Of a stretch of 64,000 nt of DNA, positions 881-49,761 are shown piece after piece. This DNA is from Candidatus Omnitrophota bacterium (GTDB lineage Bacteria; Omnitrophota; Omnitrophia; Omnitrophales; Aquincolibacteriaceae). How positions within the stretch are numbered: the first letter of the stretch is position 1; each line of letters opens with the position of its first letter. The translations under genes were made by a program, and so were the position numbers. The notes under the pieces are model-generated. The model was not told the origin of the DNA and made no database searches. It was given only the letters and a program-made list of their open reading frames with translations. Location: the NCBI GenBank assembly GCA_030698625.1, contig JAUYMS010000003.1:83471-147470 (forward strand), in the 5' to 3' direction.

Positions 881-905
881 ACCCAAATACGACAGGATCA
901 AATTG

Positions 906-1025
906 ATGCGGAAAAAGAATTTCAAAAGGGGATTTTGCATCTGGCAAAAACTAACGGCCGCCTTTGTATCGGTCTGCATGATCCTCTTGAGTGTTGTCGA
1001 ATACGTGCCGGCCGCTTATGCCTCG
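906..1025 (+). other. Sec-type signal peptide or signal anchor of the giant protein (MRKKNFKRGFCIWQKLTAAFVSVCMILLSVVEYVPAAYA|ST).
   Basis: Basic n-region, about 20-residue hydrophobic core, A-Y-A motif before a polar stretch. Confidence 0.55.
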
Positions 1026-10000: not shown

Positions 10001-13000
10001 ATCCAAGTTTTTCCCGGATGCCCCTGATCCCGACGCCTTAGTTGTTCTCTTGCGGGAATCCTTGAGAAATGCCGTTGTGTGGGGCAACAAGAGCCGGCCG
10101 GACAATTTAGCGGCAATACGCTGGCGGTTCGAGGGAGAAGAGCTTGTCATCGATGTCATTGACCGGAACCGGGAAGAGATTGATTTCACTAAAAAACCGG
10201 AACCCCCGCGGGGCGTCAAGCCGATCTACTATAGCCCGCGTACGGATCCTGCCTCGGGCGGGTATCCGGGGGACATCAAACCCTTTATCGATCCCGCTTT
10301 CCTGACGGGTGATCGCTACGATTTTCCGATTCTCGATAAATCCGGCCGGCGTCTAGGCCAGGTCCTGCACCTGCGTTACCCCTATCCTCAACGATCCGAG
10401 TTACGGGACGAAGACGATGAAGAAGTACTGGGTTATGTGGCCGATCATGCCGACTTCGATACGACGGGATTTATCACGAGCCGGTTTTCCGGAGGTTCTA
10501 ACGTCGTCGGTTTGGGGGATCTCCACACGAATCTGGCGGTCAAGGCGCAGACGATCGATCTGATACGGTCGGGGGAAATTACGCATCTGGTTATGGAGCT
10601 GAACGGTGAGGATCTGAACAAGGCGCTCAAGAATCGGGAATCATTGCGCGAAGCGATTCGGCGTCATTTTGAAATCCTTGTCATTAATGACGAAGACATC
10701 GAGAGTTTCGTCGACGTGATCCTTGCGGCCCAGACAGCCGGCGTTGAGTTGGTCTTCCCTGATCCTCGCAAGACGAGCCGGCCGGACGATCCGGGCCAGG
10801 AGACGGTCGACATGGAAGCGGCCCTGGCAATCGGGTCTATTGTCAGATCTGATCAGGATGCGAAAGTGCTGGTTCTATTCGGAGCCGAGCATACGCGCCG
10901 CGGTCTGCGCTGGCCGCGCAAGGAAGGCCGGAGCCGCCTTACCCTGGGAGAAAATCTCAAAACCGAAGAGGGTGTGCGCTACTATTCGGTCTATCTTGAA
11001 TCGCCGGACCGCAGGGATACCTCGGATTACACCCTGGTGAGAGGCGATAAATACCGCCAGCAGGGATTCGCCCTTACAAATATGGCGTCCTTCCCGCGGC
11101 AGATGCTGGACAGGGCAGCCGATACCGACTTCTTTCGACCTGAGGAAATCGATGCCTACGTTCAACTGCCTCTCCTTAGTTACGAAGACTACCGGACACT
11201 CGTCGCTGCGGGAGAGGATCTACCCAAATTTGTTTTGCCGGAGTTTACCGAAGACTTGGCGGTCAAAAGCAGTGTCGGCGAAAATGAACCGGAGCGCCGC
11301 CGTGCCATCCGTGAAAAAGCGGCTAGGCTGGTGGCCTTGTTGAGAACACAACCGGACGCCGATTGGCCGATCGAAGAAATGGTTGAGGAGTTTAACGGGT
11401 TCCGTCTTGATGTGAGCGAGTACGCGCCGGAGATCGGAGTCATTTATCTCTGGCTCAGCCCGACCGACTCGTTCACGATATCCGTCCCTACTTATTTCGC
11501 CGTCCCCTCACAAGGGATCGTCGTTCACGCCCCGGAATTCAGCGATGACCGCTATGAGGATGAAATCATTCAACTGCCCATCGAGATCGCGAAACTCCTG
11601 AACGGTAATGAGATTGAGAAAGACTCCAGCGGAATCTTTAGCCCGGCGGGGTCTGATATCTACTGGAAGGAATGGAGACAGCGGCATGCCTATCAATACT
11701 ACCGGACCCTCGTGGGCCCCATTGGGGCGGGTGCGGTGCAGGCGATTCTAGCGCGCGAGAGCGGCAGGAAGTGGAGAGTTGTCGACTTCTTCGCCGGAGA
11801 CGGGAGCTTCTTGCGGTATTTAAGTAAACACTTAGCAACGGTGCAGCCGGACACGGATGTTGATTACGCGATGGTGGAGAAGTTCAGCGAACTCATCGAT
11901 CAAGCGCCGCGTACTTTAGCAGGCACGGCGGTCGAAATTCATCAAGCGGATATTCGACACCTGCAGGACGTTAAAGCGATTATCGGTAAGAAGCCGGTCA
12001 TCGTGACAGCCTTCGGCGGGTTGAATTCCGGAGTCGTCAAGCAGGACGACGCCGAGGCCATTGCGAAAAGAATCTACGCAGCCTTGCCGGCCGGCAGTTA
12101 TCTCGTGCTCGGCGGCTACAGCGCGATGATGGTCAATGCGAAGGAGCTCGCTGCAATGGGCTTCGAGGTGCTCAATACGGGACTGCCGCATTACATGGTG
12201 ACCGAAGACAGAGAAGCTCCCAACCAACTTTATATCCTGCGCAAGCCCTATCCGTGGTATCGCGGCGGATTGTGGCGCTCGGAGTTAAGGAGCGCTTTTG
12301 ACTACGATGCCTACAGGAAGCGTCAAGAAGCCGGTCTTGAGGTAATCCTTGAAGAGATCGATGCCCTGCGCACCGACGGCCGCTGGGAAAAGATGCCGCT
12401 TAGTGCGCGGCTCCAACTGATCGGTGAGCGGGCCGACGTGGTTCCCCTCGACTGGGGCGCTTGGCTTGAGCTCCTCGAAAAAACCGGCATGTGGTTCGGG
12501 CCTGAGCGTGAAAAGATGGAGGACCCCACCGATCAGGTCGAGGCTACGATGACGGGTGACTACCAAATACTTCAGGCGCCCAGCATGCGCCAGCCGCAGC
12601 AAGGCGAAACCTACTCGCGCTATCTGACCTCCTATGGCGCTTGTGACTGTCTTGTGTTGACCCTTTATCATCCGGGTACCAAGGTCGGCATGATTGATCA
12701 TCTGTATCTGGAGCGAAAGAAGAATCCCGCCGAGCGCATCGCCGGTGCGCTAAAGACGATGCATGAGGAGTACGGCATCGATCCGCGCGAAGTCAGGGCC
12801 GAGATTTCCGGCGGTCAGATGGACCTATCGAACTTCAAGGCCATTCAGATTCTCGAAGCGCTCGAAACGCATGAAGTGCCGATCTACTTCTTCCAGGCCC
12901 TGGACTTCCCGCTCGTTATGCTGGACGGCTATTATCCGTATGCCGAGGGTGACGGCCATGTCGCCCTGGATTTAGAAACGGGCCGCCATTACCGGCTGCA

Positions 13001-16000
13001 CGATATTATCCCGCCCGCACAAAAACGACGGCATCGGTCTGAGCTCAGAAAGGGGAAGCCGATTGAGGATTATCTGAAGGAGCTCGAAAACGAGAAGGCC
13101 GTATTCGGACCGGACAACGCAGGGGAATTTTCAGAGAGCCACCGTTATGTGGACGGTATTCTTAAAAAACTGATCCTTACAGCGGGTTTTGATCCCGCAG
13201 AGTACTCTCTATACCTGGTCGATGACCCGGAACCCAAAGCCTGGATTCAGGGGCGCTATCCCGCCGTATTTATCTCGCTCGGCCTGCTGCGCTTTTTCGG
13301 GCGCCATCGGCTTTCACAAGACGCCCTGGCCCACCTCCTGGCGCATGAAGTGCTGCATCTCCGCCAGCATAAAGAGGACGAGCACTATAGCGGGCCGTCA
13401 AGCTGGTCTGAATACTACGCGGAGTACTATGCGAATGAGTACGACGCCGATGTCCGGGCACTCAGGCTTATGGCTGAGGCAGGATTTTCCATTCAGGACG
13501 CCGAATCGACTTTCGAAAAATTACGCGAGGGAATGGGCAAGAATGATTACTCGCCTCTCGGCTCCTACCCGCAGATGCGCACGCGCAGCGACCGCATCAA
13601 ACAGATCCGTGATTACGGGCGCTGGCCCGACAGCGCGCGCGCCGCGCCGCAGGCCATGCCTCAGGAGGTTCTTCGCGAGGCCATGCGTTTCTCGCTCAGG
13701 CGGCAGAAATGGCATCGCGCCAACCGCATTAATCAGGTGAAGGAGCTTTCCGAATTGATCGAGACGGCTGATGCGCTCAATGACCTTACGTTTATCCTAT
13801 GGTCGGGTCTCGGACGGCTCAAGAAGCGCCGGGTCCTGAAGTCGGCAAAGGTGCCGCATGCCGTCGAGTCCGCGCTCGTGACCCGGCTTGCTGCATTACC
13901 GATCTGGCCCGAATATCTCTCGGCCGACACGCGTGACCTCGCCGCGAAACTACTCGGTAAATTCCTGGCGGCGACTGTCTACGGAAAGTTTATGGAAAGA
14001 ACGGTGCTGATCGACCATGAATTGTTGAATGAAAAGGCATTGCTTGACGAGCTTTCGGAGATTTTTCACTCGGCAAAGAACGCGAAAGATGTGCTCGACC
14101 TGATCTCGGCGGCGATCTTTGTGACGATGCCGCAGCGCATCGCGCTCGGGCGTGAGACGGCCGGCGACGCTCAAAAATCCTATGCCGCATACCAAAACCG
14201 GTGGCATGCCGAACCGCGGCGGGGCGGTGACACGGTGGGATGGGTCTATACGTGGGAGCAGTTTCTGGGACGGGCGCTGCTCGAAGAAGTACCGTACGTG
14301 CCGATAGCCGGCCGGCAGGTCCGGTGGGGCCCTTTTATCCGCGTCGTCGGCTGGATTCAAGGGGCCGTCCGGTTCGTTCTCGGCCGGTTCGTAAGTATCG
14401 ATTGGATTCAGGTGCGTGACCCGCTTGCCGGGTGGACGGCGGCAGACCTCGGGCGCGTGTACGAAGCGGGCGCGGGGCGTACCTGGGGCGGGTATCATAT
14501 CGGTCCGATGCGTCATTCCAATGTGGTCGGCATCGACCACTGGTTGTTTCAGGCGGCGATCAATCATCCCGAACTCGTAAAGGCCATGGACACCGATACC
14601 TTCCGCCGTTTTGTCAAAGACGCCACGAAAATCGCGGTGGCCAAGGGGCCCGGCCACAGTGATGATCCCGAGACACAGGAAGCCAAGATGCGCAACATGA
14701 TTTATGAAGCGGCGTCTTTGGATGCCGCCAAGCGTGAGGTGATCCAAAATCTTCTGGGTAATGATTATGATGTCTTCGGCTTCTTCAGAACGGGGATCGA
14801 ATCGTTTCCCGATACCTGGATCTTCGGTGAAAACGCACCGGGTACCGGATATGCATACGCAGAAAAGAGAATGGATGATCTCATCCGGCAGCTGCACGCG
14901 CGGCGCGGGTCGATCAGCGGTATGGTGCTCCACCACTCGGAAGTGCTTCATGCAAGCGATCGTCTTGCGGAGAGCGCGAAACTGACGCAGACCGAACACC
15001 TGCGCCTCATGGCCCACCTTGCGAAGACCGAATGGTATTCGGCTGACATGATGTGGCACAGCCTGCTCGGCTGGGAATCGGGTCGCGTTCAGTGGATACC
15101 CTCTTTTCTCGGACAGGCCGACGACGAGCTGAACGCCTTCATCGACCTCGATTTGAGGGCGCGGCTCGGTGACGGCGTCTGGGAAAGCCTGCCGGTGACG
15201 GGACGGTTCATTTTTTATGCTTACCTGAACGATATCTACCAGTTGCCCGCCGACTGGGAAGCTTGGGACCGGGAAGTACAGTCGTGGAGCACGGAACAGA
15301 TCCGGTTGCTGCACAGGGTGGTTGCACAGAGTACGAACCGGCCCGTCTTCGACACGGATGCGAGGCTTGACCGCGAGGCGATCGACCGCCGGCCGCCGCT
15401 TCCTTACCGCCGTTCGCGCGAAGAGCTCTTGTTGCGCTTGAGTGTGCTGGGCCTTTTGAAGGAACAGGGCGTTTCTCTAAAGAAGTATTTGCCGCCGGTG
15501 GAACTCGGAAGGTCGGCGCCGAGCGGGGCCTTTGGTTTTGCGGATCAGCTGGCTGATTTGCCGCGCGGAAGGAAGGAGGACAATCCGCGCGTCAGGCGGG
15601 CGATGGATCACCTCTTTCACATGTTCCGGCTTGAAAAGGGCCGCTCGCCGTGGATTAACCGAACCGATATCGAAAAGAACGGTGAGCAGGGGATGACCGC
15701 CATCCTGGGTTATGTGTTCGCGGAAACCGGCGAGACTCCCGCAGACATGGCCGATCGTATCGCCCACTGGCTGCCGGCCACGGCTTATCGTAACTGGGTG
15801 CTCTATCTGATTTTCATGCACCACTACCTTGGCCGAACACTCGGCGTTAAGATAGACCGGAAACGGCTGGGGGATACGAGCTATATGGCGGAGGTGTGGG
15901 CAAGCGTGAGTGATAACCAGCGTGAATCCGCACGTCATTTTATTCGGGAAAAGATCGCACCACTCATGGTGCAGGATGCGCGATTGGAAGGCTTGAATCT

Positions 16001-19000
16001 CGCCAGGGTTTTTGACCATTTTATTCATGAGAAACTCCATGAGGTTGACGAAGCCGCTTACGAAAAGGCATTGCCGGGTTTTCAGGATGTAAGGTATTTC
16101 GTTCCGGGCACCGTGTTGACTCAGCTCGACCTCATGATGGGGGGCGTATTCTCCCCGGGAATTTCAGAGCAAATCGCCGATGCGGCAAGCGATCCTCAAG
16201 ATATTCTCGAACAGATCAGTACGGCCTATCCGCGTGCCTCGGCTGAGCGCGACCGTTTGTTGGTCGAACTTGCCGACCACGCGCGTGCCGATAGCGGCGT
16301 CCTCAAAGACATCATGCCGCTGCTTGACGGCCCGTGGTATAAGCAGGAAATCGGAGTGCGGGCACTTAGAAGCATTCGTGCTTCGCAATCCACAACGTCT
16401 GTTGACGATTCCCTGAAGCTCATCGAAAACTGGCTGCCGAGCGCGACGCCGATACGTGACGGGCTCCTTCACGAGGTCATTCAGGAAGAGGTCGGCACGC
16501 TTCCGGAACTGAATGCGGTGGAAGAAAAGCTCTTCGCACTGCAGCCGAACGAACAGAGGCGCCTGCGCGGAAACCAGGCCGTGGCGCTTATGGGCCTCGA
16601 GTTTTTTCAGGCCATATTCGGGTACGGCACTCCGATGGCCTCCAAGCTGGACCTCTTGGATTGGTTTTTCTTTGAGGGCGGCAAGCCGGACATCCTGCGG
16701 CGCTATGAATTTCATTTCCGTATTTCCTTTGAGGGTTTTATCGAGGAATCCGGCGATCTCGCCAAAAACGAACCTGAGGTTGCGCGCGAGGTCAGAAAAC
16801 GGCTTCTCGCGTTTGTGTTGGACGGCGACCAGGGTATTCTTTCAGACGACGATGCGACTGACGAACTTTTTAATCGGCTGCTGGCCCGCTGGCTTCCGGA
16901 AAACACCGAATTCGACATCGTCATCCGCACGGTTCTCGAGAGTTTGATCGGGCTCTCCGACCGTTTGCGAAAACGTGAAATCCTCATGCACCTGTTGGCA
17001 GGCCCCGACGATCTCAGTGCACTCGGAAACGACCCGGAACTCCGGCAAGCCAAAGTGGCGAAGCTCATTCTCGAAGCCAACGGCTTAGTCGGTATCAAAG
17101 TCGGACAGGTGCTCGCGAACTCGGCACTTGTGACCGATATGCCGGTGCCGATGAGGACGGAATTGGCGAACCTGCAGGACCGCGCCGACCCGATGGACCG
17201 CGCCGTGAGCTTGCGGATTCTCGACCAGATCCACAACGGCAAACTGCACGACCATTATCCGCGAATCGGCCGCGTGCTCGGGAGTGCATCCACCAGCGTC
17301 GTTTATGACGCATGGCACCGCAGCGGGCGGCACGTGGCGCTTAAGCTGCTGCGGCCGACCGCGCGAAATCGTACTGTCGGTGATCTCGCGATGCTGAAAC
17401 TCATACCGGCCGATGTCATCGAGCGGCTGAATGCGAAGAATATCGCAATTCCGGAGTGGCTTGAAAACTACCTCGGTCTGCTTGTCGGGCGCGTCGAACG
17501 TCTCGTGATGCCCGAACTCTTTTATACGGTGGAGGCACAAAGCATGGACCGGTTCAGGGTGCGTCAGCTGGCGCGGGGTTCGGCGCTCCGTATTCCCGAA
17601 GTCGTGGAAAATCCGGGTGACGATCTGATTGCGATGGAACTCATCGAAGATGCCGTGCCGGTTTCAGATGAAGCGGGCATCAATACCCGAGGGCGGCAGA
17701 TGGGTGATGTGCGGCGCGACATTGCGCAGGAGATGATCGTCGAAGTTCACGAAGGGGAATATCACGGTGATCCGCATCCCCGAAATTTCCTGGTCGACAA
17801 GGACGGCCGACTCTGGATGATTGATCTCGGTGCTGTCTACGAGGTGAGTCCGAAGAGTGCCGCATTTCTCATCAGCCTCGTCGCCGCCTTGCACATGGGC
17901 GCAGATATACGGCCCATTCTCGCGGACCTGCTTACGGCGAATGCGGATCCGGCCGCTCTTGAGTCGGCGATTTCAGAAGCGGCGCGAGTCGAAACAATTC
18001 CGGAAAAGATTGCCCAGATTTTCCTCACGCTTGACCAGCAGGCGCTATTGCCCGAAGACCTGGCGCTGACACAGCGGCTTTTCCTGCAGGGCGGTCACAT
18101 CTTCGAAGGCCTGAGTCTCTGGGACCTCATGCAGATCGGCGAACAGCTCAAAGACGGGCCTCAACGCTCCGAGCTCGGATCCGAAACCCCCGTCGTGCGG
18201 GAAGGTCTGCGGCCGGATTTGACACCGTTCATCGGTATCGGCGTACACCGTAAGGACCATCTGTCTTATGGGAACTCGGCCGCAATTGAAGGCGCGGAAA
18301 AGTTGACGGACTTTCTTCGGGACCGCGATTTGCTGCATGAGATACAGCTGACCGTCGAGACTGAGGCCCAGTCTCAGATCGGCCGCGAGATTGCGTCCAA
18401 ACTAGACCGGGTTCCCGACGCAACAATGCGTTTGATTGTGGACGGAGCGTTCATGCAAAAGTGCTGCTCCGAGGCCGTGCTGGGTATCTTTGACCACTTG
18501 GAGGCTAAACCCGGGCGTTTCGCGGAGCTCCATCTGCCCCTGGATCTTATCCTTTACTGGGACGACCGCCAGATGCGGGACTCTCCGCCCGAAGAAAAGG
18601 AGGAATATATTGCGATGCAGGTTCTCCCGAACCTTGAGCGCCGTGGTTTTGGATATAAGGCTTACGGTGTCAATCACCAGATCCTGGCCGAGCGCGACCC
18701 GCCCAAGGGAGGCGAAACCCGGCTGGTCGTCAAACTCTGGCATTCCGCCAAGGAAATGGAGAACTGGGCCGACAGCCTCGCGGCAAAACCCCTGAGGTCG
18801 GAGCTGAGGGCGCTCGAGCCGGTGATGCCGGTGAAGAAGGTGCTTGTCATGACGGGCGAATATTCTTATATGCCGTTTGACAAAGAGCGTGAATGGGAAC
18901 GGTACGTGGTCGATTACCTGCGCAAGGCCGGTGTCGAAGCAGAGTTTGTGTACGCCAACGGGGCGGGTGGAACCTTGCGGCGATTCGAAGAGGAGTTCGA

Positions 19001-22000
19001 TGAAATCGGTCTCGTGATCGCAACCGATGACGTCCTGCGCGGCGTCCGCGAACGGGAACGTCTGATCGGGCGGAATCCGGTGCCTTATATCTTAATGAAG
19101 ACGACCTATCTGCGAATGGACGAACCGGAGCTCGAAGAGCTCGGCAATGCGGTTTATGTGCATAGTGGGCTTGGGACATTGGACGAACTCAAGGAAATCA
19201 TTCCCGAGATTGTCGGCAACGCCGAAGGGGCGGTCTATGAGCCGTTTTGGACAGGAGAAGGCATTGAGGCGAAACCGGCGCGGGAAGGGGTCGAACATCC
19301 GGCCGTCGAGTTGCTTGAGGAATTACGGCAAGACCTCACAAATCCCACATTCCTGAAAAAGATTTACCGCGACACGACCGACTACGATGCCGAACCCCTG
19401 ACAGCGCGCTTCACGTTGATTCCCGGATACAGTCTACCGGCTTTTCCGATGACGCCCGCGAGTTTTCGTGACGACGTCCACCGCCGCATTATCAAGGAGG
19501 TTTATTCCATCCTGCCGCATGTCATCGAATTTCCCGTGGAGGCTACGGGCCGCGCGCCCGTGGTCATCGGAGCGGACTCCGATGAAGGCATCGCCCGGTG
19601 GGCGAAGACAATGAGGGTCGGCAGCCGTTTCGATCAGTGGATCAGCGATAAAATGCCTCTGGTCCATATCGAGCAAAGCCTCAACCGGATCATGACCGAA
19701 ATCGACGGAAAAGAACGTGCGAACAAGGCATTGAGGCGTAGTGTTTACAGGAAACTCGGATGGCGTGTCCACGATCTTGAAATCAAGAGCGAAGCGGCAG
19801 GCGATGAGGCGGGGCAGACGATATTTAATGTTATGGGAACGTGGCTCCTTGCGAACCCGGAGGCCGTCACTCGCGCCTGGGTGGCCGAAGACGAAGACGG
19901 CGCAGCGGCCGGTATGCTGGTACTCAAAAGAACGATTGCGAACGAAACCTTCGGTGAGCACCGGGAGATGGTGAATTCAGCGATCGCAATCGCATCGGAT
20001 GCGGCAACTCGCGGCAAGGGAATTGCGCCGCGTATGATTCGCGAGAGTTTCGAAGCCATGCGACAGAGGGGCATACGCTATTACTTCGCGGATATTGATT
20101 ACCGCAATAAACCGTCTTTCCGCACTTTTATAAAAACAGCGGCCGCGGCCGGGGCTACGGTGACTCACTTCCCCGAAATGACGACTAGCCGGGAAGAGGA
20201 ACGGCCGTTTCTGATCGACCTTTTTTCCGACCAACCCGCGCCGCGCGATCTTCCGGAAGCGCTGCCCTCCGATCCCGATGAGGCCTGGGCTTATGTTCTG
20301 GCGCAGGGATTGATGCAGGAGCCGAGCGATGAGTACTCGTGGACGCCACCGGCCGCTGACGGGGACCGGGCGGTCCGCGAGTATCGAGTCAAAGATGTGA
20401 CCGAAGAGATTGAGGCTGACGAAGATGCGGGGACCTGGATTGATTTTCAGGAACTTTATGACGACAAAGTGCATGCAAAACTTAGGGATATCACGGAATA
20501 CCCGGACCCGGCCGGCCATGAAGCAATGATGAGAGGATTTGAAGTCCAACCCGACGGCAGTTTTGATACCGTCAAACTTGAGGATGGGGCCTACTCTGCG
20601 ATTGTCCGCATTGCGGACCGCGCCGCCGTTCAGGATACCCAACAAGCCTTCCGCAAGTTTGTTGATGCGATTGCTAAGGTGTTTCCGGCGGATGTGCGTG
20701 ATCAAGTGCGCGTGTGGGAAACCGGCGAGGACAACCCCCATATCGGAACGGCGGTCTTTCAGGTGCCCGAAGTACTCTTGGGCGGAAAACAGCCCCGCTT
20801 GCAACCGCGGCATATCGAACCTCTGCAGGAACTTGTCCGTGAAATGACTCAGGACGAAGAAACAATTCCGCTCACTTTCTTGGGCTACGGCATCGGAGCC
20901 GACGGCGGCTTTGTGCGGCTCTACAGCGACCCGGCCGGCCGGTTCATGAAACTGCGCAACGCCCTTCTCCTCAAAGGCCACAAGGTGAGCCAGATGTACG
21001 CTTCGGGGCGGGGAACGAACATTATTGCTATGACCGGAGGCCGCATTTTGCATCTGCCCTATTCCGCCGATGCCGCGATTGCGGCCCGGCAGAAGGACCG
21101 CGTTCTGGAAATTGTGCGCGACAGGGCGCAGGCCTTTCAATCGCAGTGGGAACAGAACCTCGCAGAGCCTCAAATTCTTGATGTCGACGGCCTTACCTGG
21201 GTCTTGGAAGACAAGTGGCTGACCGAACGCAACGAACAAGGCGTCGAAGACGTCTTCTTTCCTTTTGGCGGCCGTTCGGAGCTGCGGAGTTTGAGCGAGG
21301 ATCTGTTAGCTGAGTTGGCTGCGGAGTACGCGGTATCACGGTTGACGAGCGGCAGGAATTCGGCCGAAGAGCAGGAGCTGATGCTGAAAACCATGCGGTC
21401 CGATGTCCACAAGGCAATCCTCTGGCGGTACAAGGGCCTTGAGTTTGAACTTCGCGAGCGTATCGAAGAGGTTGTCTTCGAAGCCGTTCAGGCTGCGGTG
21501 AGAACCTATGACGGAGTACGGCTGAGCTATCTCGATTATTTTTACGCGACGGCACAGGAAGCTATTTTGCATTTTTTCGCAAAATCCGTGCCGGCGGCAA
21601 AGCGGCCCTATCTGCTTTCGGAGCCGCTTGAGGCATATCTGAGGTTTCTGAGTCTCGAGAACCGCCGGCCGGAGCTCGACGAGTTTCTCGGTCTGACCGT
21701 AAATGATATGAAGAACGAAGATTACCTCGTCCTGCAGAGAGAAACGGATGCCGCTAACTACGAAGATTCGATTTCGGTGCCGGTTCGTGCGGCGGCGCCG
21801 GAGAATCAACTGCCGAAGCCCGTTCAGATCGCGAACGCGGGAATGGTGCGGCTTGCGAAAGCATTCGGAATTCAGGCGGCCGACATCACGGCAGCCATGA
21901 TCCACAGCGTGCCTAACACCGAATGGGCCGTGCTCTCCTTATTTTTCGGCATCGATGGCGAACTCATACAGGATCCCGAACAGATCGCCCGAAGGCTCAC

Positions 22001-25000
22001 CGAACTGGGTTACCGCGATGCGAATAATGAAGCGTTACGGGGCGAGAAAGTTTCCGACTACGTTGTCCGGGGTTTGAACCGCTTGCAAAATCGCGAAACC
22101 GGGCGCACGCGCCTTGCCGATGCGTTGGGCAAAAAGCCGACCGAAATTACGCCCGATCTCCTGCAGGCCTTGACCTCGCGTGAAGAGGCGCTCATCCGGT
22201 ATAAGTTTGGTATCGGTAAATCGCGTCTCATGACTCATCTTGAGATCGCCGAGAAGTTGACGAAGGAGGGCTTCAGCTTCAACGACGGTGTTCACGTGAC
22301 AAAAACACTCTACCGCATTTTACAAAAGCTGAAGACAGCTCAGACAGGGTGGCAACTGCTCGCCGCCGATCTCGGGAAGCCGGAAGAAGAAGCGAGACGT
22401 GATTTCGAGAAAAATGCGGCAAAAATGACCCAATTGGAAACATTGGCCGTCACCCATTATTACGGTCTCGGGGTCAACCGGATCAAAGACAAAACACGCC
22501 TGGCCAAGCATCTGAGTGATCTGACTCATGAGACCATCCGAAGGAATCGCCTTTACCGTCTGCTTGCGCGAGGCCTTGCCGTGCTGCGCGGCGAAAAGAA
22601 ACGCGTCCGCGTCAAATCCGCCTACCAACCGCCGATCATTTCGGAGATCCCGGAAGAAGTGGGCGTGACTGGCGACGAACTCCTTCAAGTCATGCGCGCC
22701 GCCGCAGGCGATCAATCTCTGGCGGAGGCATTGGTGCCCGTCCGGGATGCATGGTATGCGTTGCATCCGCTCGGGCGGGAAATCCTGATCATCAACTTCG
22801 GCCTCGGAGTTACGGCCGCAAAATCGCTTCCTGAGATCTCCAAACGCCTGAAAGAAAGTCCTTACTGGGTTGAGAAAAGTGATCCGGCAAAGACAACACT
22901 CACACGCCATCGCCGGTTAGCGCTTGCAGATCTAAAACAACGCGTGAGCGGCCTTAACCGCCTTGCCGAAGACACGGGTGTTTCCGAAGAGTATCTTCCG
23001 GGAATCATTTCGCAGGGACTCGCGCTTGAGCAGAAACGTGTTCTCAAGATGACTTTCGGACTCGATACCGAACGAATCGTGCCGGATAAATTAATCGTTG
23101 ATATCTTTCGTGATGCATGGAGCGAGGAAATCAATGCCATGCGGGTGCGGACAGTGCGCAGGGACGCACTGCAGAGGATCCGCGAATTTGCCGTCAACGC
23201 GGGTTATGCCGACGAGTCGGTTCTGACGAAACGGAAAAAAGACATGTCGAAACGGACGCCGCGGCCGCCCAAATGGACGCGCGAACGAGTCGACCAACTC
23301 ATCGCCGAGTCTGCGGACGAAAAGTTGCGCGCTACGATCCTGCATCGCCAAGGCCTGGGCGGGCTTGTCAATGCGGCGTCGGGTTTCTACGGGTCGTGGC
23401 AAAAGGCTCTGGAGGCGCATCACCGCGATATTACGAAAATCAACATACGAAAAACACCGCAGCGTTCGGAACTGCGGGCAGACAGTCCGGAGTTATCGGA
23501 TTCCCGAGATGCGGAATACAAAAAGAGACTGACGGACATTCTCGAACAGCGCGCTTTGATCATGGAGTTAAGAGAGCTTGAGCCCGCGAGCGATGAAATG
23601 GTAGCGGTCATCCTGGAGCGGTTGGGAGAATACGCGGCTTCCGCGAAAGCGAGCCTGGTTGATGTCGAGGATTTTAAGTTCGTCCTGCGCCTTGTGACGA
23701 ATCCCGCTTGGAGGACGGGTAAATTTAGTGAAAAGATGAAGGCGCTTACTCACCTTTGGGGATATGTGGTGTTCACAGCTGTACGGGAACATCGCATGAA
23801 TCCGCAACTCCGAAGCTCGGTAGACCACCTGATCACAGACATGCTTGGTGCGGAGTTTGAGAATAGGGCCCCTCTCCGCAGGATTCTAATTAACACCGAG
23901 GTTGGAAGCCCGTATCACGAAAAACCCCTGCACGGTGAGGAGCAAATGCTGGGCTCCGACTTTGTGTATTTGATCAAGAGTTTGGCTAAGAATCTGAATT
24001 TATCCGGCCGTCTGGCTGAGAGGAACGACCGCCTTGTCGGGCCCATCCTGCGGGCTTTCGAGGGCCGGTATGATTTTACGCTGACCGAGGCGGAGCGGGG
24101 CAAAATTCTGCAGTTGATGGAAGGCAATGACCTCCTGGCCATTTTTGTCTCGGCGATGGACAACGGGCTCACCCGGCCGCCTTCCAGAGAAATGACGCTT
24201 GAAGACATCCGCAAGATCCGCGGGAAATTCCGCGAGGTTGTGGCGGATTCGATAGGGTCGTATCCGGTCTCCGCGAGGGACCGGATCCTCGTTCGCATCC
24301 TGCAGAAGCAGCCCGAGCTTGGCCGTGAGTTGATGGCTGAGGCTCAGGCGGCTGTGAGTTACAGCCGTAAGCCCATCGACTTTGAGGCAGCCGGGGCAAG
24401 TACTGTGAAGAGGCGAAAAGGTGTGAATGTTGCCGATACCGAAGGTTTTGGTGACTTTGCAGTAAAGCACCCCGACCTTCATGCGGTTTTGACGTCCCGT
24501 GAGAGTCTGCTCACGCTCATGCAGACGGCTGCGCTTGTCCGCGACTTCTTTCCGTATACACTCACGGCCCCCGACAAACTGCAGACCCCGGTTCAGTTTG
24601 CCATTGAATACGGAATGTATCTGCCGTTGGGGCATGGCTATTATCTGACACCGATTTCCGGCTCGTTCAAACGTCACCTGCTCTTTACGATGGATGACAA
24701 GAACCGGCCGGTCATGACGGTGCCGATCAAGATTCCCGGAAAGATCCCGGGCCGCCGGCCCGCTCTAAACGGTGATCTCGACCGCTACCGCGATGCCCGT
24801 GAAGTCTTTGGCGACGATATGGAGATTGCCGGAGCGATGGGAACCGTGGAGCCGGCGGGACTCGAGTCCGTTATGCTCTATGGCGAAGAGCGCGAAGTCA
24901 CAGAGAAGGATCATCTGCGTGTTCTGGTCTTGGAAGGGCCCGAAGCCGGGTGGCGCGTCGAATATCTGCGCCATAAAGACCTGCAGCGGATCTCAGACCA

Positions 25001-28000
25001 TTATCCCAAATACCATGGTGATGCCAGCCTCGTTGCCGACGATATTGCCAGAAGTATTCTTCGCGGCGTGGCCCAGTGGCATGCTCTGAACTATTTAGGA
25101 AAAGGCCCGGGAGAGGGATCCGGCACGGACCTTCACACCGGCAATTGGGAACTCCTCACGCCGCCGTTAAACGGAGACCCCGAGCAGGGTATCTCAGTCC
25201 GCAATATCATCGATCTTGCTTCCCTGCATCAATATGTAGAGGACCGGGCGGCGTTTGATGGGCAGCGCATGTGGGATCTCAAAACGGTCATTGATGCCAG
25301 AGATGTCCTGACGGGCCCCGGAGTCACCTTCAGTCTTTTGGCGCTGCACCTCAAGGAGAACGAACACGATTTTCTCGAAGACCCTCACGACCTCTTCGAA
25401 AAGTACACCGCGATCTATTCGGAGGAGTATGAAGCGGTCAAGCAGATAGCCAAGCGGCCGCCGCCGATGAGTTACAGGGAAATCTATACGACAATCCTCG
25501 GAGAGACGCATGAAGCACCCCTGATCATTACGGGGCTTACGGGCGCGGGAAAAACGATCTTGGCAGAAAACTATGAGAAGTATCTGCGGGAAGGGGAGGT
25601 GGAGGTGCCGGCCCACCTCGTGCATAGTGATGGTTTCTTACGGTACTCGGTAATGGCCCTGCTCATTCGCTTGCTGATCACGCTCGGCTGGATCAAAGTT
25701 GATGCGCTTACGAAGGAAGGCTTCATTCAGCGGCATTACTTCGATTTGGAGAAACGCGACCGATTCGTCGATGAAGTCAAAGCCGGAAAGTACGAAGGCA
25801 AGCAGCTCGTAATCGAAGGCATCTTCTCAGACATCCTTTTTGCGCAGGCCTTAAATGCAAAGACGCTTCTTATAGAAGCGAACAGCGCATCGGTCTATGA
25901 GGAGCGGTACGTCGACCGGTCCATGAAAGACAAAAAACGCCTCAAGCTGCCGGCCCAATTCCTGGCGCGTACGCTGATTTCAAATCGCTTAAATCAACAG
26001 CTCCTTGATTCAAGGGAGAATCATGACCTTGTCTTGAACCTTGATGACATCTTTAAGCCGAAGCTGACCGTCAACCGGCCTCCTAAAAAAGCAGAATTAC
26101 GCCGCTCGGGACTTCTTAAAGTCATAGTCGACGCTCTGACTGCCCCGGCGGGAATTCGCGAGCGTCTTACCGCCGACGGGGTGAAGTTCGGCAGCGTGCC
26201 GGAACCCTACGTATCGACATTCGACCTTGAAGGCCTGCCCTGGGTTTTTACGCAATACCGGAATGAGGACAAGGATTCTCCGTTGCTATCGCTTGATGAA
26301 CTCAAGGAACAGGCTTTGACATTGACCGGCACGCTGGAGGTGAAGTTCGACGGCGGTGCGAGAAACGCCGGGGTCTTTCTCGGCTATGTCCAAGAAGTCC
26401 CGCATCCAGTTGTTATCAAATACTTCCAGGCAGGCGTCAGCGATATGGATGCTTATGATCGGGCACTTGAACTTTATATGGCGCAAATAGTCGCGTTCAG
26501 CGGGGTCGGGCCTGAATTTTACGGGGTGCTCGTCGAGGACGGGGAGATTGTCGGGTACGCCATGCAGGCGGCCCCGGGTGCGTTCGCGACCCAGACAAGC
26601 GACCTGCTTTACCTCATGCGCTATCTGTATCAATCGGGTGACGCCGACAACAAGGCCGTGCAGCAGAACGTGATGCGAATCGAAGAGACGATGGCCCGCT
26701 ACGCCATGGTTCCCGTAGACGGGCATTTGAATGTTCTCCTTTCCCGGACCGGGCACATATCTTTGATTGATGCGGGCAATGTCCGGCCGGCTTCCGAACT
26801 TGCGGAATTTCGCATGCCCTCGTGGATGAGTTCCGAAGAAAAAGTCAAGCAGCTGTTCCAACTTATGCAGGCCTACCTGCAAAAACGACGGCCGCTAATA
26901 ACCCGTCGCGGCGCTATTCATACGTTGCTTGATCATACCCAAGCGGAGCACGCAGCACCTCTTGTATCGGTAACAACACGGGAGATGATGAAAGATGGTT
27001 TGCACGAAAGCCTGGTTAAGTACGTAAGGCAGGGAGGGCATCTGGTATTGACGACTCCAGCCTTCAAAGAAGAGGCCTTCCTGAGCGCGATCGACGGCAT
27101 CCACCGAAATTTTGCGGAGACCGGCGAAATCGAATTGCTGGGCCGCATCCACTTCATCGCAAGCGACAATAATCTTAAAGACATTTTTGTCTACGAATCC
27201 GATGCGGGCGGGTACCGGTTGTTGCCGGACGATCCGATGGAACCGGATCCCCTGCTCAAACTCGTTCGCTATCTGAACACGGCAGGCCGCAAGGTGCTGC
27301 CCTTGATGTCCTATGACTATGAGTCTGCCAGCGTACCCCGTCGTGCCTATTTCGATACTGCCCATCGCGTGTTTTCGCAAACCCCACATGCCGGCAAATA
27401 CGTTGCGATATGGGATATCGAAGAAATCACCGAGCGGCTTGCCGAACGCGCCCCCGAAGAACTCGAAAAGGGCAGGAAGGAACTACCGGCTCAGCAGGAC
27501 TTTATGGAATGGACATTCGAAAGCACCCCGTTCGAGGTGCCTGCCGGAAATCAGGTGAAGGTGATCGTCGGGGAAAAAGGACGGGGCGCACCGGGTTTCG
27601 TTTGGGCCGGTGTCAACGATTGGGAAAAGACCTATCTGATTCCGTTGGTTCAAAACCCGGCGACCGGCAGACACGAAGCCGTGCTCCCGGCCGGCACGAC
27701 CGCATTCACGTTCTATTGGCGCGATTCCCCGAAGGCCGCCGGCGAGCGATGGGAAGGCCGCGATTTTCATGTGCGCTCTGCTGAGCGCTCGGAACTACGG
27801 GCAGCCGCGGTCAATATCACGGAAACCGTATTGCCGAATGCGGGGCTCAAAGGAATGGCGTCACAGGATGCAAAGGTGCTGATCGCCGAACTGGACGGCG
27901 ATTTCCTACTGGAAAGTAAGACCTGGCCCGAAAGGAATGCGCGCACGTTTACCGCCGCCGAACGGAAGATCTTCGAAACGGGTGAGGGGCTGACGCCGTT

Positions 28001-31000
28001 TTCGGAATTCGACCTCACGCACGACGACGTTGCTTCGGTTACGCACAGCATCTATGACCGCACGAGCGGTATTATCGGCATACGGGCGGCCGTCGAGGAC
28101 AAAGCGGGAACGGTCCGCTATATCCGGTTTTCGGGCGCAGGCACGAACGAAATGGAGAAATTGAAAACTCTCATGCCACCCATTTCTGAGATGACCGCAG
28201 AGGGGACGGTCCTGCGCGTTTCGGCCGGTAATCAGGGTGACCTGGCCGGGAATTTTACCGTGCACTCACGCAAAGAACGGGGCTGGGAGTTTTTCGGGGC
28301 CAATGACGAGCCTTGGCGGGGAGCGAGATATAAGGCTTTTGTCCAATTGGAAAATGGGAAAAGGATGTTGGGCGAGGTCGAGCTTGTCGGCGAAGCTAAG
28401 GACAACCGCATTAAACAGGTCTTTATCACGCCTGTCGGCGGACGTGAACGAGTCGAGCTCGATGCGATGCAAACGCGGTCGGTCATTGTTGCCTATACGC
28501 TGGGTTGGGGCGAAACGCCGGCGGACGAGTTACTGAGGAAAAATTACGCCATGAGTTCCGATATCCGGCACCTGCTGGCCTTTCCCTTCTTCCGAGGCGG
28601 TCCGCAATTTTACAATCAGACGGTTTTGACCCGCGAGCGCTATAAAGCCGCGATGAACTTCCGGCCGTTGGATTTTGATATTGTCGACATGACCGGTAAC
28701 GCCATTCCCGTCGCAGAGCTTCTCGGCCAACTTGATAAATACGGTTATGTTGCTAAGGATACCGCTGACGAAGTCGTGAAACCGGGCGATTATTTTATTG
28801 CGGACGAAAACAACATTCGTCTTATTTTTCATCCTGCGGTTTATCCCGTCAACATTCTTGTGACGAGTCAGGACGGCGAAAAGGCGGCTTTCGTCAGCAT
28901 CCAGGGTGTTTCCGGAAATCTTGGCGCGAACTATTGGAATGTCTTTGAGTGGATTCAGGAACAGCTGCCCTGGGCCTTTGCCGCCTTTGCCCTCGACAAC
29001 GGCAAGGACCCGTCATGGCAAAGCTACAATGAGGACGGAACCGAAGCGGAGCTGCTTGTTACAGGCCGCGACCTCGTCAATGCGACCGTGCTTGTCACAA
29101 AACGTGACGGTTTTCAACGGTCAGAGTTAAGGCTCCCGGCACGGACCGCTGAGGAAATGATGACGCGCCGGGAATTTATCCCGCGGGCGGCGTTGGCGGT
29201 TGCTGCCGGTCTCGTTGTTCTTTATGAATCGCCCAATATTGTTCTTGCCGCCGACGAAGAGAAGGGAGAAGTGACACTCTTTCTCCTGAGTCACGGCACG
29301 GTTGAGGACTTCGAGACAGTAAAACCGCATGTGGAAGCGGTCATCAAGCGGCTGCTCGATGCGGGTAAGACCGTGCATTATTTTGTTGAAGCCGCCGATC
29401 TCGAAGCGGAATTATCACTGACATCCCTCATTTACGCGGCGCTTGCGCCCGATCAGTCCGCCGACTTGCGCGAGGTCTTTGGCAACCTCTATACGGAGCC
29501 GCTCCCCGAGGCCTTTCTCGAAACCTCTTTTGAGCAAGATCAGCTATTTGTGCCGCTCCTTCAGGGGGTCGAGCGAGGACTTCAATATATGAAGGATCAC
29601 AACGAGATTCCTGCCGACCGTATTGCCGATTACGAGCTGGTCCTCAAGCTTCTGCCTGTCTTGCGGAAGATCAAGGAGAAGTTCCGGGGAATCGTGCGCG
29701 GCACGGCATCGCCGGACTCCGACGACGTCACTCGCGAAGTCGCGATCGAGAGGCTTACGAAACTGTTTGATGAATTTTATGATGCGACCGACCATTCTTA
29801 TGAGCCGGATGGGTTAGCGAAGGCTCCGTTCGCGCATCGATTGCACTATGCCCTTAACCGGGATAAAGACGGAAAGCCCTGGGGATTCTGGGGCGCGCAG
29901 GAGATGTACCTTAGAGAAGGCACGTTTGCCCCGGAACTGGGAACACGACTGCTTGTTCACAGGGAACGCCTGCTTACGCCCGGCCAGCTTGATGCGTATA
30001 CGACAGCGTCGGTGCAATACTCGAAACTATTTGAAGCGCTCGGATTTCCGGGAAATCCCAAATCAGTTATCGAGATCGAAGGAAAATTTCCGGAAGCGGT
30101 TTTCTATGCGACGCAGGGTACCGCGGAGGAGAGATTGGCCCTCGTGCGCAAAGCCTACTACGAGGCCGGCGCCCGATTTGAGAGTGCCGTCATGGGTGGC
30201 CGCGACAGAGCGCTATCGCAAGAGGCGGTCCGTTTAACACCGGAGGACAAAGACGCATCGGTGATTACCCGCGGTTTGGCTCACGTGGCGGCGGGAAGGC
30301 TTCTGGCGGATAATGCCGCGACGGATGTCAGGGACATGAAGCAGATTCAGGGAAGGGCGCAGCCGGCAGTTGACGCGCCCAATACCGAAGCGGAGCTCAG
30401 AGAAATGCGCGGCGGCAATCCGGGCGACGCCATAAAATTAAAGGTTGGGCAGCATATGGTGGTCGGTTTGATCTCCGATCTCGTTCGCGAAGTCCACAAG
30501 GATCATTTGAAGGCGTATCGAGAGCGCTACGAGAACCTCGCGGCCGGAATCCCCGATACCCTTCAAGGTGAGGACCGGGAAAAGGAAATTGAAAAACAGA
30601 TGAATCAGGCCCCTTACTTCCGCGCCATGGATCCTGCACCGCTTCCGAAACGGCTTGAGAGGTTTTTTGTCGAAGACAGACGCAGTATCTGGAACGCAAT
30701 GGCGGACCACCCGGAACAAGTTGAGGAATTCCTGCTTCAGGCCTTTAGGATTCATGCGGCATACCAGCGGGTCGTTGCTGCAACGCTCCGGAAGAAAAAA
30801 GAGACGGAGCCGGAGGAGGATCCTGTGGAAATGGCGGGGAGAATCTATGCGACTTATCTGGCGATGCTGAAGCTGCGGTCTGCCTCGATCCCCACGCCGC
30901 TTGAAGCCGAAGAGCTGCCGTTCAAGTTGATCACAAAGGCCGTTGCCGACGGAGTGTATGAAGGGGATGTGAAGACTTTCCTCGATACCTTCGAAGCAGA

Positions 31001-34000
31001 AGCCGAAAAAGTCATGGATTTCAAACCTTCGCTCCTGCGCCGCGAACGCTATCGCTCCGAGCTGCGGGATGATGAGCCTGTAAAGGAGATTCCTCTTTAT
31101 ATGGCTTATGCGCGGCATTTAAACGCGGCGGACACCTTTGATTTCGCAAAGCCGTTTTTTGATGAGGCAATTCAGAAAACATCTCGCAAAGACGGCCGCC
31201 CGAACGGCATTATGATTATCGAGCATGTGGATTCCAATCTTGCTGCTATGTTCATGAACGCGATGCACCGAGTCGTTGATCCGGTGCAGTTTCCGGACTC
31301 GGTCGTGGGCGCTTGGTTCAGACAACAACTTACTATTCCCAAACAATGGACACCTTATGAAAAGATGGAATCGTTTCTCGTGCAGTACCGGCAAGATCAG
31401 CCGTTCAGGACTGAAGTGGACAACCAGTATCAGGCCTTTCTCAAACATATTGGCGTCGAGAGAATCTATGGCATCTATGACCTAAAGCAAAGGATCGGGC
31501 CGGCCTCTGTTTTACAGCATGCGGAGCTCGACTATTTTATCGAAAAGGGGATAGGTCAGGCCGCGTTGGAGCCCGCCCGCTTTGAAACGGCCGCGACGGC
31601 GTATCTTTTCGGGGAATTGGATAAGGAGATAAGGCAAGCGCTTACGCAAAGGAGATATGACGATGCGGCCAACTTGCATTTAAAGTCGATTGATTTGCTT
31701 GAGGACTCGGGCAAAGTCCGCGACAGGATAATGAATCAATTCGTAGGTGAGCTCATCCGGGAAGATCCTGAGCGTGCCATCTATCACTTTCGCGGTTTTA
31801 ATCATGAGAGAAATCACGATCTCCTTACGGGTGACGGGCAAAAGGCCGCAGGTGTCTTGGTCGGCAGCAGGCTGGGCCAGAGGCCTGTCTTTTCGACAAC
31901 CACCTTTCAAGCCATGGACGGCGCAGAAAAAAACCTTCTCCTCATACATTTTATGAATGAGGTCCTGGATCATTTACTTCATGAAGAGAAACTCAGCTCG
32001 CATCGCAGCATCCAGGAATTCCTGGCTTTTCACCTGAGTCTGACACAGGGGCTTGAGCGGGAATTTAAAAGCCTGGAACAACCTGAAGACTACGATGCTT
32101 GGTTTAGGGAAATCTTTGATGCCGCAAACGAAACAGTACAAAGGAAGAGCCTGTCCCTGGGTCTCGCGCTGCTTGAAGTTTTGGAAGAAAGAAATATCCT
32201 GTCTCGTTCCGAGCTCAGGACCGAAGGCGGCGATAAAGAAAAGCCTCGCGGGCAAATTACGCGAAGGACGTTTTTGGATTGGATGGTGAAAGCCGCCAAT
32301 GCGGCCGCGGCGGCATCGGGGGTTTCGCCCGGGGCATTGCTCGAGGCCGCCGTCTCCATCCCCGCCGAGAAACCAGACTTGTCGCTGGCGGCGTTGGCCC
32401 GGCGATTTGCCCATAATCCCGATTCCCTGAAGGAACTCGAACAGGGTGTTGCTTGGCTTCAGGCATTCACTATCCTATACGGAACTGACAAGAAAGAGGA
32501 AGACTATGAGCTGGGCTTGATAAACCTGAAGCTCGCCGTACTGGACGGCGTGCGCACACGCAAAGAAAGTGAAGGCGTGACCGCGCTTTCCGAAGAGGAA
32601 GCCGCTTCACGGCTTGAGACGGCCCTGAATTCGCTGGAATCCATTGCCCAGTCCGAGGGCCTGAAAAAGGCCCCGCATCTCTTGGAGCGTCTGCGGAGCC
32701 TGATGGCCGAACCGTTCAGCTTCAAAGCTGCGCTGTCTGCACGAACGGCTCTGATACGGCACGCCTGGGGCACCGTACTTGGACCCCGCAGCGAGCTGTC
32801 GAGGGTCGCCAAAGACGTTGCCGAATGGTATGGCCGCGATCTCCGGGCCGCGCAAGCCGTAATGGCGGAGATCGCCGAACAGCTCACGCCGGAAGGATTC
32901 CGAAAAATACGGCAGCGGGAATTGATCTTCGAAAGGAATATGGACAACTACTTTGATCGTTCACTCCTCCCTGAGATTGCGCGCGGCGAGGCCGAGATCG
33001 ATTGGAGCAACCTTTTGGAAGACGACTACCGCGCTCGCATGTCGCGGTTTAAGGATCTGGCCGGTCAGTTGCCGGCAGCGGTGCGCAAGCAGGTGTTTGC
33101 CAATCCTAAAGTGCGGGAGGCTGAACGCAGTTACCGGCAATGGCAGCGCGAAAGCTGGAAACGAAAGGAGGAGCGGGAAACCTCCGCCGATCCCGAATCG
33201 CTCAAGATGATCATCGTCGGCGGCAGGTTCGACGACGAAGGCGGCAGGCCGTCATCATTAGTCAATCAGATTCATGCCGCACTGCCCGCGGGCACGAAGC
33301 GCGTCAACGGCGGCCGCTTTGACGCAATTCCGGGCCTCGCAAAGACCCTCGCCGATTATGACGTGATCATCTGGTTTCCCGATATTCCCAATGACAAGGC
33401 GAAATACCGGAATCTGAAAGCGCGGTATCCCGACAAATTGCTGGTGACCTCGAAGCGCAACCACGAAGGCAGTTATAGCGACCTCGAAGTCGTCGATCAC
33501 GCGCTCAAACTCAAAAGCAATCTCGTCATCGAATTTTCGGATACGATTCCGTTTAATATGAGGCTGCTGGATCCCTTGGGAAATGTCTACGAAGATACTC
33601 AGGACGCGTCATCGCTCGCCAAGTCGATGACAAGGCGCCTCAAGGTGATCGCGAAGGTGCGTCGGCAGGGGACAAAACGCGTCGCGGTCGCCTCACCGGT
33701 CAAGGTACCGGATGAGCCCGAGTTTTTCGATATTATCCGCGATCAAGCCGCGCGATTTCACGAGATCATGAGTGAACGTCGGCCGGAGACGGAAGAAAAC
33801 GAGGAGTTTTGCTTCCGTTGCGAAAGGGGATTCCCGAGTATGCGCGAGGGCGATTTCGCGTTCGTCTCGAAGCGGGGTGCCGCAAACACGGAGCGGCATT
33901 TTACGCGCAAAGATATGGTTCCCGTGGATTTGGCGAGTTTCCGCGAGACGGGCGAAATTAATTTCTACGGCCCCAACAAACCGGCGGTGGATACGCCGGT

Positions 34001-38655: not shown

Positions 38656-38670
38656 AATTACCTTTTGTGC

Positions 38671-43465: not shown

Positions 43466-43468
43466 TGC

Positions 43469-44271: not shown

Positions 44272-44275
44272 AAAG

Positions 44276-44560: not shown

Positions 44561-44567
44561 AAACGCC

Positions 44568-46001
<1,434 letters not shown>

Positions 46002-46036
46002 TCACGCGTCTGCATGTTGAGGTGACTGTCCCTGCT

Positions 46037-46918: not shown

Positions 46919-46924
46919 CCTGGT

Positions 46925-48427: not shown

Positions 48428-48442
48428 GATTACAACCTCTTC

Positions 48443-49491: not shown

Positions 49492-49509
49492 CGGGATCCT
49501 TTCGCAAAA

Positions 49510-49740: not shown

Positions 49741-49761
49741 CCTGAAACTCCTTCCTTGGTG

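Follow-up and report, generated by a model that had tools for sequence, protein, structure and literature searches.

Background and the locus

Region 4 of the sigma-70 factors (PF04545; residues ~540-600 of E. coli RpoD) is among the best-studied DNA- and protein-binding domains of bacterial transcription, and its approach to promoter DNA can be seen in the structure of T. aquaticus sigma-A on -35 DNA (PDB 1KU7). This report concerns a tandem array of region-4-like units inside a giant protein of a Candidatus Omnitrophota bacterium. The DNA analysed, referred to here as the window, is a stretch of 64,000 nucleotides (nt) from assembly GCA_030698625.1 (contig JAUYMS010000003.1, positions 83,471 to 147,470 of the forward strand). 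It contains one uninterrupted open reading frame (ORF) on the + strand, nt 903..37655, that encodes 12,250 amino acids (aa) and holds the array.

The giant proteins described from the Omnitrophota are encoded by ORFs of great length and combine a signal peptide or transmembrane segments with numerous enzyme domains (West-Roberts et al. 2023, 10.1101/2023.11.21.568195; Nielsen & Lui 2026, 10.64898/2026.06.07.730766). The window ORF resembles them in its length, in its signal peptide/transmembrane features and in its enzyme domains, and its methyltransferase, GNAT and kinase-type content fits the "Module 1" regulatory architecture of these proteins. Neither of the two papers mentions sigma domains or RSELR, a pentapeptide that recurs throughout the window protein. 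In addition, the searchable literature yielded nothing relevant on tandem region-4 arrays, with or without an attached sigma factor. The region 4 domain itself is known, but neither Pfam nor the searchable literature gave a conserved five-unit array of modified sigma region 4, joined to a sigma factor or separate from one, inside giant proteins of the Omnitrophota type.

The units share with sigma-70 region 4 the pattern L..RE..VL..R(F/Y)G(I/L), an EIA helix, and a basic last helix ending in AL..LR; their predicted structure shares its four-helix helix-turn-helix (HTH) fold, and they are closest to the group-1 sigma factors. They differ from it in that five of them stand in tandem, each with an extra N-terminal helix and an insertion of ~11 residues in the HTH turn, and in that they score below the Pfam gathering threshold. 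Furthermore, the window segment has no region 2, and the residues that contact the -35 element are not present in all units. The C-terminal HTH of LuxR/GerE (PF00196) and HTH_23 (PF13384) have a related small helical HTH fold but do not match the array.

A tandem array of five units

The array consists of five consecutive units at nt 21843-23198 (aa 6981-7432 of ORF 903-37655). Together with the sequences on either side, it lies between two copies of RSELR in the following order.

nt 21273..21287 (aa 6791-6795), + strand: upstream RSELR of the array segment, exact match
nt 21288..21842 (aa 6796-6980), + strand: N-terminal part of the RSELR-bounded segment, 185 aa, no family assigned
nt 21843..22103 (aa 6981-7067), + strand: unit 0, the unit that was modelled; missed in the original prediction
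nt 22104..22349 (aa 7068-7149), + strand: unit 1, which holds LTSREEALIRYKFGIG and gives the best NCBIfam sigma match
nt 22350..22601 (aa 7150-7233), + strand: unit 2, with a conserved arginine equivalent to sigma-70 R584
nt 22602..22691 (aa 7234-7263), + strand: conserved linker of 30 aa between units 2 and 3, with YQPPI..IPEE.GVT common to relatives
nt 22692..22952 (aa 7264-7350), + strand: unit 3, the most diverged in the window
nt 22953..23198 (aa 7351-7432), + strand: unit 4, whose last helix, RVRTVRRDALQRIRE, is a weak Pfam Sigma70_r4 match
nt 23199..23462 (aa 7433-7520), + strand: C-terminal tail of the module, ~88 aa, with the pattern RKKDMS..WT....GL..LNAA...YGSW..AL
nt 23463..23477 (aa 7521-7525), + strand: downstream RSELR of the array segment, exact match

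The original prediction, made from the letters of the sequence, had proposed four units of 55-75 aa beginning at nt 22170. The motifs on which it was based (LTSREEALIRYKFGIG, LHPLGREILIINFGLG, TLTRHRRLALADLKQ and RVRTVRRDALQRIRE) are all present in the translation. However, there are five units rather than four, and the proposed start falls inside the second of them. The units are also longer than had been thought, at 82-87 aa, because each adds an N-terminal helix (xxLAxDxGV) to its region-4-like part.

In the repeat alignment, the five units are only 17-29% identical in pairs, and the repeat was examined with hidden Markov models (HMMs) of two kinds. When an HMM was built from four of the units, the omitted unit was the top non-training match in the whole 12,250 aa in all five cases, with scores for units 0 to 4 of 20.9, 19.6, 7.3, -3.6 and 9.8 bits; unit 3 is weak by this measure. 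When 29 units from nine other proteins were used instead, with no sequence from the window, the resulting HMM matched exactly the five units (43.1, 51.4, 26.6, 29.6 and 43.1 bits for units 0 to 4) and nothing else in the protein. Unit 3 is the most diverged inside the window, yet it is well kept among its orthologues (WYALHPL.R...NFGLG...KTTLTR.RR). There is no tandem repeat in the array at the nucleotide level; consequently, the copies must be old. Overlapping ORFs at the array, in the other frames and on the other strand, gave no Pfam match, and Rfam gave nothing there.

Homology to sigma-70 region 4

The five units are homologues of sigma-70 region 4, the four-helix domain for the -35 element and the beta-flap, and their divergence is ancient. 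Profiles made from the window's five units alone and from a family of 34 units were compared with all PDB chain sequences. With the window-only profile, the top 33 matches are all sigma factors (RpoD/SigA and one SigF) at their region 4, the best with an E-value of 3.8e-5. With the 34-unit profile, region 4 of SigA is matched at 7.7e-9, and the first 41 matches are all sigma region 4, those of group 1 coming first and followed by RpoS, SigB and SigF. Alignment of the unit profile with an alignment of true region 4 by hhalign gave a probability of 97.8% (E 7.3e-13 over 56 columns). In addition, all six NCBIfam matches on the segment are to sigma-factor models at their region 4 (TIGR02997, E 5.5e-8). 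LuxR/GerE and HTH_23, which had been named as profiles to be compared with Sigma70_r4, have no match to the array, either in Pfam (E <= 10 per unit, E <= 0.1 for the region) or in NCBIfam. An identity with either family was rejected for want of a match, and every significant match is to a sigma factor.

Prediction of the structure, which had also been suggested as a check, leads to the same place. AlphaFold2, given an alignment of only the window's five units, produced a confident model of unit 0 (predicted local distance difference test score, pLDDT, 89.3; predicted template-modelling score, pTM, 0.79) in which a four-helix fold is present, with an HTH formed by the last two helices. When this model was compared with the PDB by Foldseek, nearly all of the best matches were sigma-4 domains (1rio_H, 3vep, 3vfz, 1ku7 and 6ido), with target TM-scores of 0.63-0.79, root-mean-square deviations of 1.2-1.9 Å and probabilities of 0.97-0.99. 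The central claim of the original prediction, that the giant protein contains tandem sigma-70 region-4-like HTH units, is therefore borne out by the PDB profile search, hhalign, NCBIfam, and AlphaFold with Foldseek. Neither of the two outcomes named there as speaking against it, a lack of significant profile matches and a predicted structure without HTH geometry, was observed.

It might still be asked whether a generic helical repeat could resemble sigma region 4 by chance, given that no unit reaches the Pfam threshold and that the Foldseek E-values lie near 1. However, four independent tests are specific to sigma region 4, their top match lists are made up almost entirely of sigma factors, and a true sigma factor stands beside the array in its relatives. 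After the results with the 34-unit profile, NCBIfam and hhalign, a chance resemblance is very unlikely, to the point of being negligible.

Departures from region 4 and a candidate binding surface

Each unit opens with an additional, mostly acidic helix with the consensus xxLAxDxG[VI]. The short HTH turn of canonical region 4 is absent from the units; relative to RpoD/SigA, the turn carries an insertion of 11 residues in the alignments, or about 11 (5-16) over the units, and in the AlphaFold model a small hairpin is predicted at this place.

The net charge averages +3.4 per unit, with units 0 and 4 being negative. The strongly conserved polar positions are solely basic ones on the last helix, and several are specific to a given unit. 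Thus, unit 2 has an arginine at the equivalent of sigma-70 R584 in nine of ten orthologues; unit 3 has arginines at the equivalents of Q589 and E591 in 7/10 and 9/10, respectively; and unit 4 has an arginine at the equivalent of E591 in all ten. To judge from helical periodicity, these arginines would lie on or beside the face that sigma region 4 turns toward the -35 DNA, and nucleic-acid binding by the units is plausible.

Relatives and the upstream sigma factor

An exhaustive HMMER search with the unit profile over 1.84 billion representatives (E <= 1e-3) matched 132 proteins, most of them with several stretches and some with as many as 11. A word-indexed homologue search, using the region and an alignment of ten proteins, came back empty and evidently missed clear relatives at its candidate step; an array scan of genome contigs also gave no relative. 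Relatives are referred to here by number (P0001 and so on). Among the 132, 14 protein clusters have the full ~82-aa unit with its N-terminal helix and arrays colinear with that of the window, and these are large or giant multidomain proteins. All of the named array relatives (NQT07349.1, MDD5671035.1, MDD5216593.1, MBP9865254.1 and MDE2027725.1) are from Candidatus Omnitrophota.

By blastp, the window segment is 31% identical to P0033 over 455 aa (E 3e-51) and 29% identical to P0007 over 634 aa (E 1.5e-50). The units align colinearly, unit by unit, over ten proteins, and the alignment includes the linker (YQPPI..PEE.GVT) and the ~88-aa tail, even though the relatives are only 22-31% identical to the window segment. 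This indicates that the five-unit arrangement is old and that the units are individually orthologous. The window carries all of the features that mark the Omnitrophota array module, namely at least four ~82-aa units, the LAxDxGV helix, the turn insertion, colinearity, the linker and the tail. Array, linker and tail form a single module. The tail is common to P0004, P0005, P0007, P0027 and P0033, with the fuller pattern RKKDMS..(K)WT....GL..LNAA...YGSW..AL..(G)RD. It resembles the homing-endonuclease-associated repeat but gives no Pfam match, and no such identity is claimed.

In five relatives (P0001, P0002, P0003, P0005 and P0007), a complete sigma-70 factor with regions 2, 3 and 4 is present ~250 aa upstream of the array. 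For P0002, the Pfam E-values are 4.6e-12, 3.1e-11 and 8.8e-9 for Sigma70_r2, r3 and r4. P0007 has Sigma70_r2, r3 and r4 as well, with SecA domains later in the same ORF. These five proteins have an array colinear with that of the window, with the same unit types and linker and 22-30% identity; P0005 (MBP9865254.1, annotated as "sigma-70 family RNA polymerase sigma factor") and P0007 also share the tail, and in both, the module is enclosed by RSE[LV]R motifs as it is in the window. Unlike the window protein, they have Sigma70_r2/r3/r4 upstream. Region 4 of the relatives' sigma modules bears the signature RYGIG, as do the array units, and this common signature fits a birth of the array by duplication of the sigma factor's region 4.

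No sigma region 2 is present anywhere in the 12,250-aa protein, as judged by Pfam and by a profile of the relatives' sigma module. Consequently, the window copy cannot itself be a sigma factor. P0033 is a second sigma-less form of the array. A stretch that looked like sigma region 2.1-2.3 was considered at aa ~6820-6895 (nt 21360-21590; VVFEAVQAAVRTYDGVRLSYLDYFYATAQEAIL, with ..AV..FD.....FSTYA...I..AI). It was rejected as evidence; blastp matches to it had E-values of 0.34 and 6.9 in a small database, and neither Pfam nor a PDB sequence search nor the profile of the relatives' sigma modules supported it.

In P0007 (4033 aa; locus L001, 10001-22102, of contig ERZ27233592 k141_65493), a sigma-70 factor, the array and a SecA module (SecA_DEAD, SecA_PP_bind and P-loop_SecA) lie in one ORF with RSELR between them. 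This architecture indicates that giant ORFs of this type concatenate cytoplasmic housekeeping-type proteins. The giant proteins of the Omnitrophota can hold transcription machinery, here a sigma factor, and one relative also has SecA.

The remaining ~117 HMMER matches are to canonical Sigma70_r4 repeats of 50-60 aa, with a maximum of about ten in one protein and some of them after a sigma region 2. P0006 has ten such repeats (Pfam E 1e-75), and P0012 has region 2 followed by repeats. Such proteins are like the window array in their tandem duplication of region 4, often after region 2. They differ from it in passing the Pfam threshold, in having neither the N-terminal helix nor the insertion in the turn, and in not belonging to giant multi-enzyme proteins. 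In P0006, P0008, P0011-P0017, P0019, P0020 and others, there are 5-11 Sigma70_r4 domains in tandem, and the composition is mostly of a low-G+C-like kind. This tandem canonical architecture is also apparently undescribed.

RSELR motifs between the domains

The giant protein contains 16 exact copies of the pentapeptide RSELR, compared with an expected 0.08, which makes it by far the commonest 5-mer there.

aa 481, 535, 950, 1267, 2839, 3164, 3792, 4045, 5965, 6791, 7521, 8962, 9406, 10051, 10435 and 12050, + strand: exact copies of RSELR

The codons vary from copy to copy, so that it is the peptide, not the DNA, on which selection acts. The copies are placed between domains that can be recognised, and those at aa 6791 and 7521 exactly enclose the array module. 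Related motifs recur in some relatives (RSELR eight times in P0007, RSEVR six times in P0005, RSE[MV]R five times in P0033 and RSE[TMV]R 13 times in P0135). The sigma/array module ends at an RSE[LVM]R motif in P0005, P0007 and P0033, in P0007 after a short linker. P0133 (4358 aa; NQT07349.1) has no RSE.R and instead repeats DLPEA(E) four times, and lineages may differ in the motif that recurs between their domains.

RSELR is a candidate processing site or linker, and its copies are candidates for the points at which domains of the giant Omnitrophota proteins are bounded or processed. The 2023 study of giant genes reported that analysis was blocked by missing information on cleavage points (10.1101/2023.11.21.568195). 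A literature search for RSELR itself brought up nothing but the names of unrelated software, varSelRF among them. The window protein has a weak Peptidase_M48 match (E 6e-4; nt ~13140-13370, aa ~4080-4155) ~35 aa after the RSELR at 4045, and P0033 has a Rce1-like/CPBP intramembrane protease at aa 947-1033 (E 9e-8). Both M48 and CPBP are membrane proteases of the CAAX-protease type, and these two domains could be putative processing enzymes.

Proposed function and alternative explanations

The side of the membrane on which the array lies bears on any proposed function, and two features of the giant protein are relevant.

aa 11-29, within the N-terminal stretch aa 1-42 (nt 903-1030), + strand: signal-peptide-like N-terminus, MRKKNFKRG..., AYAS
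aa 548-588 (nt 2544-2666), + strand: hydrophobic hairpin, Ala/Gly-rich, with a positively charged stretch directly after it

The hairpin is flanked on both sides by RSELR motifs. From aa 589 to the array, the protein has no clear membrane segment. Pfam identifies methyltransferase, M48 peptidase, ABC1 kinase and GNAT domains between the hairpin and the array, and a class II aldolase and a second methyltransferase downstream of it. Those between the hairpin and the array include domains that depend on S-adenosylmethionine (SAM), ATP and acetyl-coenzyme A (acetyl-CoA). Furthermore, Pfam and NCBIfam reveal no secretion-system or toxin domain adjoining the array.

The explanation that fits best as a whole, and that is favoured here with somewhat better than even confidence, is that the array is a multivalent, most probably DNA-binding, module of the cytoplasm that was derived from sigma region 4. 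In this model, the array would have arisen by duplication of region 4 of the upstream sigma factor. The module would lie on the cytoplasmic side of the membrane; this placement draws on the need of the neighbouring enzymes for SAM, ATP and acetyl-CoA, on the fusions with a sigma factor and with SecA in relatives, and on the lack of a clear membrane segment from aa 589 up to the array. Both the sigma factor and SecA work in the cytoplasm. The array would act as a multivalent binding module, with DNA as the most probable ligand given the average basic charge, the basic character of the conserved last-helix positions and the unit-specific conserved arginines. The basic face of each unit's last helix would contact the DNA, and the five units could read or hold an extended stretch. 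In the sigma-bearing relatives, the array might extend promoter recognition or tether the sigma factor, while in the window protein it would act without sigma activity. Cleavage at the RSELR motifs on either side may also free the module from its giant precursor. Arrays of five or six such domains raise the question of how a sigma factor uses extra copies of region 4, which might read extended promoters, tether the sigma factor or inhibit it.

Several results weigh against this explanation or the homology beneath it. Pfam Sigma70_r4 gives no match on the region at E <= 0.1; taken unit by unit, it scores 12.7 bits (E 0.093) in unit 4, below the cut-off of 24.1, and nothing in the others. The Foldseek E-values for the unit 0 model are only ~0.4-1, as is usual for a domain of ~70 aa. 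A single-sequence AlphaFold model of the whole segment (730 aa) has a pLDDT of 37, so that the arrangement of the five units cannot be derived from it. The insertion is located exactly at the HTH turn, near the place where sigma region 4 approaches the DNA backbone, and could stop the units from binding DNA in the canonical way. At the positions of R584, E585, R588 and Q589, which contact bases in sigma-70, the residues are not conserved throughout the units. Finally, the acidic N-terminal helix of one unit could pair with the basic helix of its neighbour, which would leave the basic face internal.

Under the main rival to DNA binding, the units would serve inside the cell for interaction with other proteins, or as sigma-4 decoys, and would not bind DNA. 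The units would then keep the surfaces for the beta-flap tip, anti-sigma factors and activators and would serve for docking or for built-in regulation of a sigma factor. Both the HTH-turn insertion and the poor conservation of the base contacts fit such a loss of DNA reading; the solved complexes that were matched include sigma region 4 with RsdA, lambda cI, phage G1 ORF67, WhiB1, WhiB7 and the beta-flap tip; and the relatives have a complete sigma factor ahead of the array. C-terminal extensions are known as regulators in extracytoplasmic function (ECF) sigma factors, and the SnoaL_2 domain of sigma-J is reportedly an example. However, the extra N-terminal helix may already fill the groove for helical partners, the conserved exposed residues are mainly arginines rather than hydrophobic residues, and the window protein and P0033 keep the array even though they have no sigma factor to regulate. 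Interaction without DNA binding is thus a real possibility, but one to which about a one-in-several chance seems appropriate. Another explanation, in which the window segment is the decaying remnant of a fusion with a sigma factor and does nothing by itself, would account for its loss of sigma regions 2-4, for units that fall under the Pfam thresholds and for the net negative charge of units 0 and 4. Such a relic would hardly be expected to have five units, a linker and a tail that are intact, in frame and colinear with relatives only 22-31% identical, nor to retain its core hydrophobic positions and unit-specific arginines. Given also that the model of the unit is confident and that the sigma-less form recurs in P0033, decay is unlikely.

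The original prediction had placed the array in an exported protein, as a nucleic-acid binder or a sigma mimic directed against the RNA polymerase of a target cell. Omnitrophota giant proteins have indeed been proposed to act on prey cells (10.1101/2023.11.21.568195), and the N-terminus of the window protein resembles a signal peptide, which is the sole basis for calling it exported. The other evidence speaks otherwise: a hairpin at aa 548-588 is followed by positively charged sequence, domains that depend on SAM, ATP and acetyl-CoA lie between the hairpin and the array, in relatives the module is joined to cytoplasmic machines, namely a full sigma factor and SecA, and no secretion-system or toxin domain stands beside the array. 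Nothing in this analysis points to mimicry against a target cell's RNA polymerase, and export for that purpose is highly improbable.

A more speculative reading would treat the giant protein as a polyprotein. Cleavage at the 16 RSELR motifs would yield ~17 products, one of them the sigma-less five-unit module, and the relatives would release a membrane-tethered pro-sigma factor with five or six extra region-4 domains. This proposal is doubtful, but if it were true, it would mean a new class of sigma factor, multivalent reading of DNA and proteolytic activation from a giant precursor. In a wilder variant, the products would be delivered into prey cells, where they would redirect the RNA polymerase.

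Gene neighbourhood and the N-terminal head domain

Within the 64-kb window, the giant gene is set among chromosomal housekeeping genes.

nt 161-703, + strand: SseB-like gene, upstream of the giant gene
nt 38101-50625, - strand: nuoI, nuoN, nuoM, nuoL and nuoJ and the F-type ATP synthase operon, downstream and on the strand opposite to the giant gene
nt 53949-62887, + strand: nusA, infB, a DHH phosphoesterase gene, ribF and pnp, after the nuo/ATP synthase genes

Near its N-terminus, at aa ~60-120 (nt ~1080-1260), the giant protein has a head region, TVILIQDAHDSLEAQEHIAELVDHL...YEEGYEG, that is common to the N-termini of P0007, P0033 and P0001. The TVILIQDAHDSLEAQEHIAELVDHL region seems to be a head domain that giant proteins of this class have conserved.

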